51,690 nt of DNA. It comes from Candidatus Woykebacteria bacterium. Lineage in GTDB: Bacteria > Patescibacteriota > Microgenomatia > Woykebacterales > RBG-16-39-9b. Shown in pieces: positions 6,775 to 12,011 of the stretch. A program made the position numbers and the translations under genes. How positions within the stretch are numbered: the first letter of the stretch is position 1; each line of letters starts with the position of its first letter. The notes under the pieces were generated by a model that ran no database searches, was not told the origin of the DNA, and saw only the letters and a program-made list of their open reading frames with translations. The stretch spans positions 1-51,690 of the forward strand of contig JBBDPN010000001.1 of the NCBI GenBank assembly GCA_040876265.1, written 5' to 3'.

Positions 6775-7476
6775 ATGACAGGAGTAGTTTTAATAGCCCT
6801 AATGCTCAATGCCCTGACGGTACTATTGGTTCTTTACCTAGTTTATAGAGCCGATAAGGCCATTGGGGACTTCGAGCCTTACTTGCAAGACGTAGAGAAA
6901 ATGCGCGGATCCATAGCTAAACGTGGCAACGAGATATTGGAGAAAACAATAACCGTCGCTCAAGAAATGATTAGGAACGCAGTCTATACCTCCCAGAAAA
7001 ATATCAGGCAATCGGAAAGCCTACAAGCCGAGATGGAAAACATAATGAAGGTGGGAATACAACAAAACCTATCAGAAAATAAACAAATGATACAAAAGGT
7101 AACGCAGGATATCTTAAAAGCCTACGAAGATCAATTTTCTAGCCTTGGCAAGGAAGTGGAATCTGCCGGTTTGGCCGCTCGTCAAGAAGTTCTGGACGCC
7201 ACAAAGCTGCGAATAGCTGAGCTTGCCGAAAGTATGAGCAGTGAACTAGCCCAGATAGGTAAAACAGCTGATGAAAAGATTTCTAGCGAACTAACCGCTT
7301 CCCAGGAAGTTATAAAAGCGTATCGTGATCAGAAACTAAAAGAGTTGGACAGCAAGGTATATCAGGTTCTTTCACAAGTTGCTAAAAAAACGATTGGGCG
7401 CACCATCGATCTTTCTGACCACGAAGAACTAGTGATGCAGGCTCTGGAGAAAGCAAAAAAGGAAAACCTTTTGTAA
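6775..7476 (+). CDS. atpF: F-type ATPase subunit b-like peripheral stalk protein (long, 233 aa)
   Basis: Single N-terminal TM, long coiled coil, b-like C-terminal DLSDHEELVMQAL, located before delta and alpha. Confidence 0.65.
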   Translation: MTGVVLIALMLNALTVLLVLYLVYRADKAIGDFEPYLQDVEKMRGSIAKRGNEILEKTITVAQEMIRNAVYTSQKNIRQSESLQAEMENIMKVGIQQNLSENKQMIQKVTQDILKAYEDQFSSLGKEVESAGLAARQEVLDATKLRIAELAESMSSELAQIGKTADEKISSELTASQEVIKAYRDQKLKELDSKVYQVLSQVAKKTIGRTIDLSDHEELVMQALEKAKKENLL

Positions 7477-7498
7477 ATTTATAATTTGAAATTCACTC

Positions 7499-7990
7499 AT
7501 GGTAAATCAGGAAGGAATCTTAACTAAATTAACTGAAGGTATCTATACACAGGAGGATCTAGAGTTGCTGTTAGGGGATGTGGAAGAAGCTAACCGTTGG
7601 GTCTACAAGGGCGGCAGTGTGCCGTTGAGTAAAAAAATTAGTGGTAGTGTCTCAGAAGGTTTTCGCAAGAAAATCGAAAGTCTGGAAAGCGAAGAGAACC
7701 TGCCGGGCAATCGAAAAGAACTCGCCGCTCTTTTTAGAAATCTGCTAGAAAATCTTGAAAAGATGGTCAAAGCAAAACTTACTTTGGCTTTCGCGCCTAG
7801 CGACGAGTTTTTAACAAAGCTTGCTGGTTGGTTCGAGGCCCAAACCGGTAAAAAAATTGTTCTGGATATCCAGATTGACGAGAGCATTATCGCTGGGTGC
7901 CGTCTGGAATATAGTGGTGAATATCGGGATTACTCATTGGGAGAGAAGTTGGAAGCCGTGTTGGACCAGGAAATAAAAGGGCTGGTTTAG
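7499..7990 (+). CDS. atpH: F-type ATPase subunit delta-like
   Basis: C-terminal IVLDIQIDESIIAGCRLEYSGEYRDYSL matches the delta/OSCP VDPSLIGG...DGS pattern; synteny. Confidence 0.8.
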   Translation: MVNQEGILTKLTEGIYTQEDLELLLGDVEEANRWVYKGGSVPLSKKISGSVSEGFRKKIESLESEENLPGNRKELAALFRNLLENLEKMVKAKLTLAFAPSDEFLTKLAGWFEAQTGKKIVLDIQIDESIIAGCRLEYSGEYRDYSLGEKLEAVLDQEIKGLV

Positions 7991-7993
7991 CTT

Positions 7994-8021
7994 TAAGTTC
8001 TAAGTTGTAAGTCTTAAGAAT
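7994..8021. repeat. 7-nt tandem repeat before the atpA start
   Basis: TAAGTTC TAAGTTG TAAGTCT TAAGAAT, then TA and ATG. Confidence 0.75.
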
Positions 8022-9493: not shown

Positions 9494-10376
9494 TAGAAAC
9501 GAGCTAAAAGCTGATCTAGAGGCGGTCAGCGCAATAAAGAGTATCACCAGTGTGTACCAGGAGATCGCCTCGTTTCGGATGAAACAACTGCGGGGAAGAG
9601 TGGATGCCGTAAGAGAGTTTTTGGAAGGGATCTCCACTGTTTACAATCACGCAAAGAGTGCGTACATCGCCGCCGTCAAAAGCCGTTCTCCAAAGGAAAG
9701 AGAAAATCTATGGAAGCGACTTTCATTTATACGTAGAAATGGAAAAAAAGTTAATGTGCTCCTTAGCGCCAACGAGCATCTTTACGGTACCTTAATTTTA
9801 GATGTTTGGAGCCACTATTTGAAGGACCTAAAGAGGGGTGACGCTGACGCTGCTGTCGTTGGTAGTATCGGCAAATACCTATTGAGCAACGAACAGACGA
9901 AAGTTATGGCAAACTACTTTTCGCTAGATGATGATAAACCAAAGCCGGAAGAAGTAAAAAAAATAATTGACCATATAACTTCGTACGAACAGGTTGTTAT
10001 CTATCACGGACAAATGGTCACGGTACTACACCAAATACCGGTACGGAGTGAGATAAGCGGTGGAGTATCATTTGAAGTCACAGACCAAAGGTCAGCGCGC
10101 CGCTATCTATTTGAGCCTTCACCCGAAAAAATAATGGAGTTTTTTGAGACGGAGATAATGGCCGCTCTTTTTAATCAGACTATACTTGAGCACCAACTCT
10201 CTAGGTTTGCCGCGCGGATGGTAGCTATGGACCAAGCAACCGAGAATGCGCAGGAAGAAGTGAAGAAAATTGAAAAGCAGATTCTCCGTTTGCGAAGAAG
10301 GGTCATGAACCGAAAACAACTTGAGGTTTTTGCAGGGTTCAGCCTCTGGCGAAAGGAGGCCGGTCCGTGGAAATGA
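9486..10376 (+). CDS. atpG: F1 ATPase gamma subunit
   Basis: N-terminal [16 protein letters not shown] and C-terminal [17 protein letters not shown]; ATG 9486 overlapping the atpA end is preferred over the track start 9447. Confidence 0.9.
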
Positions 10377-11734
10377 TTGGCCACGTCAAATCTATCCGAG
10401 GTGATATTGTCGAGGTTGAATCGGCAGGGAAAGGCTTAGCTAGGCACGACTTATTGACGCTTAGTGATGACCAACAGGTGAGGCTCGAAGTTTATAGCTC
10501 TACGGTTAATGAAAGTGTTCTTTGTATATCTTTGACAGATCCATCACATATTTCTAGAGGAATGAGAGTGGGGAAAATCGAAAGCAGCCTCCAAGTGCCT
10601 ATTGGAGACGCTATGCTTGGTAGAGTCGTAAACCTTTTTGGCAATCCTATCGATGGCTTGGGCCAAATGGTAGTTCCGGAGCGCGCTTCTATCTACCGGG
10701 GTAGACCCACTTATGATCAAATTAGCTCCAACGTGATTATTCAGGAGACAGGCATAAAAGTAATCGACTTTTTCACGCCGATAAGAAAAGGTGGGAAGAT
10801 AGGCCTATTTGGAGGTAGTGGGGTGGGTAAGACTGTTCTTCTTTCTGAACTAATGCACAATATAGCTTTCTTTCACAAGGGCGTCTCTGTTTTTGCTGGT
10901 ATCGGGGAGCGAATAAGGGAAGGCCACGAGCTTTACGAGACCTTAAAGACGACTAAAGTTTTACCTCACGTAGCTATGATTTTTGGACAAATGAATGAAG
11001 CAGCCGCGGTCAGGTTTCGGGTTGGTTTTACTGCGGTCGCCTTGGCTGAATATTTTCGGGACACTAAAAAGCAAGACGTTCTTTTTTTCATCGACAATAT
11101 ATACAGGTTCGTTCAAGCTGGCAATGAGCTCTCTACTTTGCTAAATACTATACCTAGTGAAGATGGTTACCAAGCGACTCTTGCTGGCGAAATTGGAGCG
11201 TTTCAGGAAAGACTGGTATCAACCAAGGAGTCTTCAATCACTAGTATTCAAGCGATATACGTTCCGGCTGATGATCTTACCGACTCTGGAGTACAAGCAA
11301 TCGTTCCTTATTTTGAATCTATAGTGACCCTGTCTCGCGAAGTTTATCAAGAAGGTCGGCACCCGTCGGTGGATATTCTTGCCTCCTCATCATCACTCAT
11401 CGAACCTGGGGTACTTGGTTATGAGCACTACGATGCAGTGCTCGAAGCTGAAAAGCTTTTAAAAAGGTATACATACCTGCAGAGGATAGTTTCAATCGTG
11501 GGTGAGGCCGAACTATCGGTTGAGGATAAGATCCTCTATCACAGATCGAAGAAGCTGTTAAACTACATGACTCAAGACATATTTGTGGTTGCCGATCAAA
11601 TGGGTAAGGAAGGTAAATATATCAAAAAGGAAAATACGATATCAGATGTAAGAGACCTGCTTTCGGGACGGCTAGATAACGTGCCTGAAGAAGCGCTACT
11701 TTATATAGGAGATTTATCACAGCTGCGTAAGTGA
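10367..11734 (+). CDS. atpD: F1 ATPase beta subunit
   Basis: Walker [16 protein letters not shown] with catalytic Glu, [18 protein letters not shown]; SD AAGGAGG 7 nt before GTG. Confidence 0.97.
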
Positions 11735-11738
11735 AATT

Positions 11739-12011
11739 ATGGAACGCAAGGGATCAAAAGAAGAAATTTTTGTGGCGGTGTTTTGGCCACCTTTTGTCGG
11801 TAAAGTTGGTTATCGGGGTTCTGTAGCAGCAATATCGTCAGTGAACCTGGTAGGTAAATTTGATATTTTGCCTGAACATACCAACTTTATTTCTTTGATT
11901 AAGGACCGCATAACTATCCACACTCTAGATAAGAAAAAGGTGGAATACGAGTTTAAGCGGGGTGTATTAGAGGCAAGCGGTAATCTGGTCAAGGTTTTCT
12001 TAGGAATCTAA
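11739..12011 (+). CDS. atpC: F1 epsilon subunit, N-terminal domain only
   Basis: GKFDILPEHTNFISLI matches epsilon GxxGILPxH; only 90 aa, no C-terminal helical hairpin. Confidence 0.8.
   Translation: MERKGSKEEIFVAVFWPPFVGKVGYRGSVAAISSVNLVGKFDILPEHTNFISLIKDRITIHTLDKKKVEYEFKRGVLEASGNLVKVFLGI

Follow-up and report, generated by a model that had tools for sequence, protein, structure and literature searches.

To our knowledge, in every rotary F-, V-, and A-type ATPase that has been studied, ATP and ion flow are coupled by a ring carboxylate that faces a stator channel, and the only F1 derivatives we know of that have been freed from ion coupling are those of mycoplasmas. These are the type 2 (the Mycoplasma mobile gliding motor, MMOB1660/1670) and type 3 (MSC_0618/0619) enzymes, F1 paralogues with intact catalysis that are encoded without the Fo subunits a or c. 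Here we describe a seven-gene F-type ATPase operon located in the first 51,690 nucleotides of contig JBBDPN010000001.1 of a Candidatus Woykebacteria bacterium (GenBank assembly GCA_040876265.1), a stretch of DNA that we refer to as the window. Mycoplasma F1-like clusters are not known to have b, delta, epsilon, or a c-like membrane ring, all of which are kept in this operon, in which the ring gene encodes a c-like fusion protein with an exported domain. An original prediction, made from the DNA sequence alone, had read the cluster as a hydrolysis-driven motor uncoupled from ion flux.

Hairpins of the c type without an ion-binding Glu or Asp have been described in other enzymes. In the hybrid F-type ring of Acetobacterium woodii (c1) and among V-type ring subunits (c''), these carboxylate-free hairpins are a minority in the ring and subunit a is present. 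In contrast, the sole ring gene of the cluster analyzed here is carboxylate-free in every family member, and its product bears an extracellular domain. N-ATPases, the alternate F1Fo enzymes with AtpQ and AtpR, are encoded in some bacteria by an additional, divergent F-type operon alongside the canonical one; they retain a and an ion-binding c, and their gene order is different. The ProAD survey contains 20 F/N-ATPases with c-type hairpins that lack Glu/Asp, which it calls "non-catalytic"; it does not describe the c-like family, and it ascribes incomplete Patescibacteria sets to genome incompleteness (PMC11738941). Mahendrarajah et al. mention the sets of the candidate phyla radiation (CPR) only as "minimal complexes" (PMC10656485). 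In the searchable full-text literature we found no earlier description of the cluster.

With the canonical F1Fo operon (atpBEFHAGDC), the cluster shares the gene order from the c position onward, alpha and beta subunits that are 45-50% identical to those of solved bacterial enzymes, the catalytic motifs, best NCBIfam matches to atpA/atpD, and a hairpin with the fold and loop of a c subunit. It differs from the canonical operon in having no atpB, in a ring subunit that lacks the carboxylate and carries a signal peptide and an exported domain of approximately 125 amino acids, in an epsilon without the C-domain, in a short alpha N-terminus and delta N-domain, and in a longer b-like protein of variable length.

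The operon and its ring subunit

The open reading frame (ORF) listing and profile searches identified a single copy of the operon in the window, with the following genes and elements:

5823-6593, plus strand, c-like fusion protein (256 amino acids)
5925-6293, plus strand, exported beta domain of the c-like protein (amino acids 35-157), with a conserved motif in the family alignment
6357-6590, plus strand, c-subunit-like membrane hairpin of the c-like protein (amino acids 179-256)
6594-6774, plus strand, spacer between the c-like and b-like genes (181 nt; RNA fold -45.5 kcal/mol, z = -3.2)
6775-7476, plus strand, b-like peripheral-stalk subunit (233 amino acids)
7499-7990, plus strand, delta (OSCP) (163 amino acids)
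8024-9493, plus strand, alpha (489 amino acids)
9486-10376, plus strand, gamma (296 amino acids)
10367-11734, plus strand, beta (455 amino acids)
11739-12011, plus strand, epsilon (90 amino acids)

The ORF and profile calls thus reproduce the order c-like, b, delta, alpha, gamma, beta, epsilon given by the original prediction, and the ORF listing the 233 amino acids that it gave for the b-like protein. The span 6775-12011 runs from b-like to epsilon, and the c-like gene lies upstream, outside those coordinates. A TTG start for gamma at 9447 was rejected as an over-extension, and 9486 was taken as the start. Neighbouring genes overlap or are separated by gaps of at most 33 nt, except for the 181-nt spacer that follows the c-like gene. 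This spacer is more stably folded than shuffled controls and terminates in a small hairpin with a U-rich stretch after it; in Rfam, the region gave nothing other than one meaningless sub-threshold snoRNA match, located in the spacer. The spacer could be an attenuator that raises the ratio of the c-like protein to F1.

The c-like protein consists of a signal peptide (amino acids 1-27), a beta domain (35-157), an amphipathic helix (165-177), and the two hairpin helices (179-219 and 221-254), and its signal peptide is predicted to be cleaved after IFA. The AlphaFold2 model of the protein has a mean predicted local distance difference test (pLDDT) score of 84, with values of 92-96 in the beta domain. 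An alignment of 32 homologues shows the same architecture, with the signal peptide, a well-conserved exported domain, and two C-terminal hydrophobic helices joined by an invariant Arg-Asn-Pro (R219-N220-P221 in the window protein, nt 6477-6485). In canonical c subunits, the R-Q-P-type loop is the loop that binds F1. A sequence profile built from the C-terminal 75 residues matched only ATP synthase c chains in the PDB (seven, best E 0.004). When the hairpin of the AlphaFold2 model was compared with F-type c subunits using Foldseek, TM-scores of 0.75-0.87 and root-mean-square deviations of 1.3-2.5 Å were obtained, with matches that include the chloroplast, Bacillus, E. coli, and Chloroflexus subunits. 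As read from the sequence, the signal peptide, the positively charged loop, and the outward termini give the topology of a canonical c subunit. Because of the signal peptide and the positive loop, the N-terminal domain is expected outside the cell and the R-N-P loop in the cytoplasm.

The c-like protein therefore has the hairpin fold and the loop of a ring subunit, but it lacks the Asp or Glu in the middle of helix 2. We take the canonical ion-binding carboxylate to lie 18 residues past the Pro of the R-Q-P loop, the spacing in the E. coli and Bacillus PS3 sequences. The equivalent residue of the c-like protein (239, P221+18) is Thr in the window and Ser, Val, Phe, Leu, Ile, or Ala in its relatives, and an Asp or Glu is present in helix 2 in none of 24 family members, nor in the window protein itself. 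Two polar residues of this helix, N234 and T242, are invariant. As judged from these alignments, the ring subunit encoded by the operon cannot bind a proton or Na+ by means of a carboxylate.

For the exported beta domain, the Foldseek matches were phage capsid decoration or cement proteins, the base of the phi29 gp8.5 head fibre, and the C-terminus of phi29 gp12; these matches, with the Borrelia phage BB1 shell protein among them, had E values of 4e-4 to 3e-3. Weak Pfam matches to XM1_gp53_minor_capsid (12 of 32 members) and Peptidase_G2 (6 of 32) were also obtained. The exported domain thus has a fold in common with phage decoration and cement proteins and with the C-terminal auto-chaperone of phi29 gp12 (Peptidase_G2). 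Unlike these phage proteins, it is fused to a membrane hairpin and encoded in a cellular operon, and the likeness implies no proteolytic or capsid role. The same domain recurs, sometimes in several copies, within giant CPR proteins such as P0136 (4272 amino acids) and P0157 (1543 amino acids), which suggests that it is a general surface module in CPR organisms. Giant proteins with this domain were located in three related loci:

L025, 312-3794
L026, 145-5433
L033, 12155-16033 (minus strand)

Catalytic head, stalks, and classification

The head encoded by the operon has the catalytic alpha3beta3 motifs of an F-type ATPase. Motif positions and PDB alignments confirmed the catalytic motifs of beta and the Arg finger of alpha that had been reported as intact: beta has Walker A GGSGVGKT (amino acids 149-156), the catalytic Glu in GERIRE (180-185), and Walker B FFIDNI (240-245), and alpha has Walker A GDKKTGKT (155-162) and the Arg finger within SVSRVG (349-354). 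The beta motifs are invariant across 15 relatives. The central stalk is formed by gamma and by an epsilon that has the N-domain only. Gamma is full length but divergent (PF00231, E 1e-29, profile positions 3-282 of 285), and epsilon matches PF02823 over residues 25-86 (E 3e-5), under the curated cut-off. With its 90 residues, epsilon consists of the N-terminal beta-sandwich alone and has lost the C-terminal helices, as had been claimed. Epsilon has 86-107 amino acids in relatives, its open frame has a median of 91 and a maximum of 120 amino acids across the family, and the inhibitory C-terminal domain of epsilon is missing family-wide. An apparent fusion of beta and epsilon in one locus (L017) proved to be an artefact of a masked run of N.

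The reported AELSVED is indeed found at the DELSEED position of beta (amino acids 381-387), where the family consensus is (A/S/T/Q/E)ELS(V/L/A/P/E)(E/D)(D/N). The original prediction had used this change, together with the loss of the epsilon C-terminus, as evidence of altered coupling. Both changes are real, but the acidic residues of DELSEED are not known to be required for torque. The C-terminal domain of epsilon contacts these same residues, and the AELSVED change probably just goes along with its loss. Similarly, the alpha N-terminus is short, with 12 residues ahead of EVG and two codons open upstream of the ATG. Residue 2 aligned to residue 17 of the solved alpha of Bacillus TA2.A1, so the N-terminus is approximately 15 residues shorter. 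The shortening had been predicted, but it indicates a remodelled attachment of the stalk rather than uncoupling.

The peripheral stalk shows the same remodelling. In delta (163 amino acids), PF00213 matches residues 73-153 (E 4e-10) and PDB delta chains align to 74-154, while the N-terminal region is approximately 25-30 amino acids shorter than usual and unrecognisable by sequence. Together, the shortened alpha N-terminus and delta N-domain constitute a remodelled stalk attachment. The b-like protein has one N-terminal membrane helix followed by a long coiled coil, and its C-terminal 70 or so amino acids are conserved in an alignment of 16 relatives (..YK..K.KE.D.KIYQ....VAKKTIGKAIDLS.HEKLVMEALEKAKKE). 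It has no match to Pfam ATP-synt_B, and its profile matches to the chloroplast b' (E 1e-4) and E. coli b (E 0.05-0.1) subunits stand amid generic coiled-coil matches. Its assignment as b is based on its position, its topology, its conserved C-terminus, and these weak b/b' matches among coiled-coil noise. The gene lies between c-like and delta in all loci, and its open frame varies from 184 to 353 amino acids among relatives, the extra length being due to insertions in the central coiled coil.

To classify the enzyme, its subunits were scored against NCBIfam models. Beta exceeded the equivalog cut-off of TIGR01039 (489.9 bits, cut-off 462.85), and alpha, gamma, delta, and epsilon were all under their equivalog cut-offs, alpha with 447.5 bits for NF009884 (cut-off 554) and 419 bits for TIGR00962 (cut-off 484), and gamma with 87.8 bits for TIGR01146 (cut-off 194). 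Scores for the mycoplasma models were under their cut-offs (in brackets), both for the gliding type (NF045863, 351.8 [600]; NF045858, 367.4 [850]) and for the MSC_0618/0619 type (NF045936, 267.7 [520]; NF045934, 369.9 [570]). The same was observed with the N-ATPase models TIGR03324 (373.8 [750.5]), TIGR03305 (436.5 [752]), TIGR03323 (14.8 [282]), and TIGR03166 (13.5 [100]), and neither a nor AtpQ or AtpR is present in the operon. The FliI/SctN models gave at most 184 bits (cut-offs 380-715), and alpha and beta are distinct genes. Since the scores are highest for atpA/atpD and under the cut-offs for N-ATPases, mycoplasma enzymes, and FliI/SctN, the cluster is best described as a divergent offshoot of the canonical F-type that belongs to no named variant.

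The mycoplasma F1-like ATPases, put forward in the original prediction as a precedent, hold as an analogy but not as a family to which the cluster belongs. Both occur in small, host-dependent bacteria, and a second system beside a canonical enzyme is one possible reading of the cluster. However, the mycoplasma models give alpha and beta lower scores than the canonical ones do, the phylum is different, and the peripheral stalk of b and delta that the mycoplasma enzymes lack is retained.

Family distribution, missing subunits, and neighbouring genes

A word-indexed search with the c-like protein returned 204 homologues, all of them unnamed or "hypothetical". In an exhaustive profile search for the c-like family, the number of cluster representatives was 617 at E<=1e-30 and rose to 6348 at E<=1e-10. 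Of the top 150 profile matches, nearly all were proteins of 250-290 amino acids that aligned end-to-end, and a few were giant proteins that matched in the beta domain only. Scans of GTDB genomes and JGI metagenomes gave 21 and 80 loci, respectively. The cluster was found in Woykebacteria, Daviesbacteria, Nealsonbacteria, Parcubacteria/Paceibacterota, and others, and, via a second search, in Curtissbacteria. Gene order was determined in the 52 of 93 distinct c-like loci that had at least 6.5 kb of downstream sequence. In 51 of these 52, c-like is followed by b-like, delta, alpha, gamma, beta, and a short epsilon, and there is no subunit a in the operon. In the exception (L091, c-like at 3828-4622), the c-like gene stands beside two conserved upstream single-helix genes, without b, delta, or F1, and an O-antigen-ligase/TPR gene takes the place of the F1 genes downstream. 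The seven proteins diverge in step, with identities to the window proteins of 70/83, 60/74, 47/58, and 35/47% for c-like/beta in four loci. This set of traits is beyond chance, recurring across approximately 90 related loci.

The original prediction had also stated that the window contains neither atpB nor atpE. Pfam scans of every ORF with several membrane helices and of the other large ORFs found neither gene, and six-frame scans of the window with a canonical-c hidden Markov model (HMM), with E. coli subunit a (phmmer), and with the R-x-x-G-N motif were likewise negative; the canonical c and E. coli a sequences used here are approximate queries. No other F- or V-type ATPase subunit was identified among the remaining genes of the window. 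Two small two-helix ORFs (43865-44080 and 45433-45645) were considered as a stray atpE and discarded, as they matched neither Pfam nor the c HMM. Within approximately 10 kb of the cluster in some 90 related loci (1.12 Mb), no subunit a, canonical c, or second alpha or beta was found. Chance predicts approximately one such co-location in genomes of 0.5-1 Mb, and this negative result therefore says little about whole genomes. Two kinds of neighbouring genes were examined as a possible subunit a and rejected: the 238-amino acid gene upstream in L002 (9282-9998) encodes a soluble protein with an IS1595-type zinc ribbon, and the genes of 162-215 amino acids that follow epsilon in Curtissbacteria-type loci, considered as remnants of a, encode single-helix or Tat-signal exported proteins. 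Soluble IS1595-type zinc-ribbon proteins of approximately 230-240 amino acids abut the c-like gene upstream in several Parcubacteria-type relatives (L002, L010 at 5609-6289, and L015 at 9093-9818), and not in the window.

Upstream of the cluster in the window lies a divergent giant gene:

2-5356, minus strand, 5' part of a giant gene (at least 1785 amino acids) that runs off the window

A MerR-like helix-turn-helix motif (NLIAFDEVIDRAKGRGVTFGKGNPFNRLRYYTKIGLL) stands at the N-terminus of its product, ahead of a single membrane helix and a very large exported region. The conserved MerR-like N-terminus of these giant genes reads ..NLI.[FI]DEVI.RAK..GV.FGKG[ND]P.NRLRYY.KIGLLPHA. A divergent giant gene is also found upstream of the cluster in L004 (1-9218), L006, L009, L011, L013, L015, L016, and L091, and this divergent layout is conserved among distant CPR lineages; in L004, a close relative, it encodes 5401 amino acids, and Beta_helix/NosD domains occur in L004 and in more distant relatives. 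The giant gene is possibly associated with the ATPase cluster.

In Parcubacteria-type relatives, genes for a CheY-like receiver-only regulator and for a histidine kinase that has 6-9 membrane helices lie after epsilon or, in 8 loci, between alpha and gamma. Such genes are present at the following positions:

L010, 9576-10519
L012, 9264-11050
L014, 4346-6135
L001/L002, 15795-17635
L015, 16165-18154

Genes for an O-antigen-ligase/TPR protein and RodA are commonly found just beyond them. The cluster of the window has neither receiver nor kinase, and a lone receiver gene lies at 36783-37172.

Downstream of epsilon in the window is a leucyl-tRNA synthetase gene. The remaining genes have ordinary housekeeping and envelope functions (ComEA/ComEC, ArgRS, NDK, two MreB, MreC, PBP2, a ribosomal protein cluster, a sortase, a pilin, and dockerin-bearing surface proteins). 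The divergent giant gene, the receiver/kinase pair, and the O-antigen-ligase/TPR and RodA genes of the related loci are loose hints of a role in the cell envelope. Three exported proteins of the window (28111-28983, 28974-32363, and 51241-51690) have a common N-terminal motif, ..YRKSINPPYRR[KR]DL.., ahead of a membrane helix. Dockerin type I repeats form the C-terminus of two of these proteins, and GH39-like and PA14 domains are present in one. The motif may be a signal for sorting or anchoring that is specific to the lineage. Other features of the window are a region (42500-46500) with a G+C content of 0.49-0.53 (0.41-0.45 elsewhere) that contains two alpha/beta-hydrolase genes, together with several short ORFs matching no family, and may be acquired DNA; a stretch of approximately 0.9 kb (27183-28111) without a long ORF on either strand or an Rfam match at the gathering threshold; and a single 434-amino acid ORF (38522-39826, minus strand) in which peptide deformylase and methionyl-tRNA formyltransferase are fused.

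Possible functions of the complex

With about even confidence, we favour the reading that the cluster encodes a self-contained, CPR-specific derivative of the F-type ATPases that is driven by hydrolysis, does not move ions in the canonical way, and has an output that may be mechanical and directed to the surface. The complex probably burns ATP for a purpose other than ion pumping. In the mechanism that we propose, the c-like hairpins would form a ring that docks on gamma and epsilon through the invariant R-N-P loop, and ATP hydrolysis would turn gamma, epsilon, and this ring against alpha3beta3, delta, and b. Without a ring carboxylate and without subunit a, such a complex could carry neither H+ nor Na+, and hence could neither synthesize ATP from a gradient nor pump ions. 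The enzyme would run in the hydrolysis direction only, in line with the loss of the inhibitory domain of epsilon and of the acidic DELSEED residues. The motor proposed in the original prediction thus agrees with the carboxylate-free ring, the absence of a from the operon, the invariant catalytic motifs, and the loss of the epsilon C-domain. The DELSEED change and the short alpha add little to it, and the retained stalk speaks against it.

The exported domains, one on every ring subunit, would form a crown on the outer side of the membrane, and it is through this crown that rotation or torque would reach the cell envelope or surface structures. A more specific proposal, which we put forward only tentatively and regard as rather unlikely in this full form, is that the ATP-driven F1 turns a proton-blind ring whose exported crown acts on the envelope or on the adjacent giant surface proteins, under the control of the receiver and sensor kinase in some lineages. 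If correct, a motor with an extracellular crown would be categorically new, while the presence of a lone atpB/atpE pair in these genomes would make the system an ordinary one.

Several observations weigh against the self-contained, ion-independent enzyme that we favour. The main difficulty is that the retained b/delta stalk is hard to explain without a stator partner in the membrane, and the cluster encodes none; moreover, a b-like coiled coil that differs by up to approximately 170 residues between relatives does not resemble a stalk of fixed length. That the complex forms a ring, rotates, and hydrolyses ATP is itself what we infer from the genes. The window (51.7 kb) represents approximately 10% of a contig of 532 kb, and atpB and atpE elsewhere in the genome are conceivable. 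In the subunit-count table of Mahendrarajah et al., all CPR genomes with alpha and beta score COG0356 (subunit a), and one Curtissbacteria genome (GCA_001776545) has AtpE = 0 and AtpB = 1 (PMC10656485, Supplementary Data 4). The variant was found in two other Curtissbacteria assemblies, GCA_001774815.1 and GCA_001776475.1, neither of which is the one in the table. One Saccharimonadia genome is tabulated with two alpha, beta, gamma, and epsilon subunits and a single c, delta, a, and b (PMC10656485), a pattern that would be expected for a canonical enzyme plus the variant and may reflect this. One family member is labelled "membrane subunit c" by JGI, so that COG-based counts of c may sometimes include the fusions.

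The COG0356 scores of the table, with that of the Curtissbacteria genome in which no c was detected, the small part of the contig that was covered, and the retained b/delta stalk are what would be expected of an ordinary ATP synthase with a split operon, in which the present genes are the only F1, b, and delta set, atpB and a carboxylate-bearing atpE lie elsewhere, and the c-like protein is an accessory, for instance an assembly factor, a minor component of the ring like A. woodii c1, or a wall anchor. We consider this unlikely, though with a real chance of being right. An accessory would not be expected to occupy the exact position of atpE in 51 of 52 loci, to diverge together with F1, and to keep its F1-docking loop invariant, and the family-wide loss of the epsilon C-domain and the remodelling of alpha and delta suggest a distinct machine. 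In addition, canonical CPR operons have been reported as complete, contiguous clusters (PMC4508563), and no a or c lies near the approximately 90 loci surveyed, although chance would have given only about one. That the genes are the functionless remnant of an ATP synthase decaying in a reduced genome is effectively refuted by their conservation. CPR genomes are streamlined and many have no ATP synthase (PMC10656485), but the reading frames of the cluster are intact and overlapping or abutting, the catalytic motifs are invariant, and the architecture is conserved in 617 diverged representatives and complete in 51 of 52 loci.

Two further explanations accept that the cluster is a machine of its own. 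In one of them, the complex would not rotate; the c-like ring and the b-like protein would anchor to the membrane an F1-type ATPase whose task is either regulated ATP hydrolysis or the export or assembly of the adjacent giant surface proteins, comparable to that of FliI-FliJ-FliH in type III export. The giant exported proteins that divergently adjoin the cluster in many lineages, the unconstrained length of the b-like protein, and the locus in which c-like stands next to the same neighbours without F1 genes (L091) are consistent with such a role. The full-length gamma, the epsilon N-domain, delta, and b nevertheless make up a complete rotor-stator parts list, the FliI/SctN scores are far under the F1 scores, and the cluster encodes no export-gate proteins, and hence we regard a non-rotary ATPase as distinctly improbable. 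In the other, ions would still be moved, with Asn234 and Thr242 as the binding site and with another membrane protein in place of subunit a, for example the helix of b or the histidine kinase that some relatives have in the operon. Two invariant polar residues in helix 2 would suit this scheme, as would the kinase, with its 6-9 membrane helices, that separates alpha from gamma in 8 loci. We give it very little credence, as Asn and Thr are not protonatable and the kinase is missing from the cluster of the window and from most loci; in addition, among rotary ATPases we know of none that moves ions in the absence of a ring carboxylate and a stator Arg.

The family is large and conserved, with hundreds of diverged clusters in several CPR lineages, and it combines a full rotor-stator parts list with an ion-incapable ring and an external domain. 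As its c-like, b-like, and delta genes are annotated as hypothetical, standard pipelines do not see the system. Should the complex be self-contained, counts of "F-type ATPases" based on alpha and beta alone overstate the ion-gradient capacity of Patescibacteria, and the family would provide a natural test case for the roles of the peripheral stalk and the c-ring without ions. If the crown does act on the cell surface, these ultra-small, cell-attached CPR bacteria would possess a rotary force across the membrane that is powered by ATP and not by an ion gradient.

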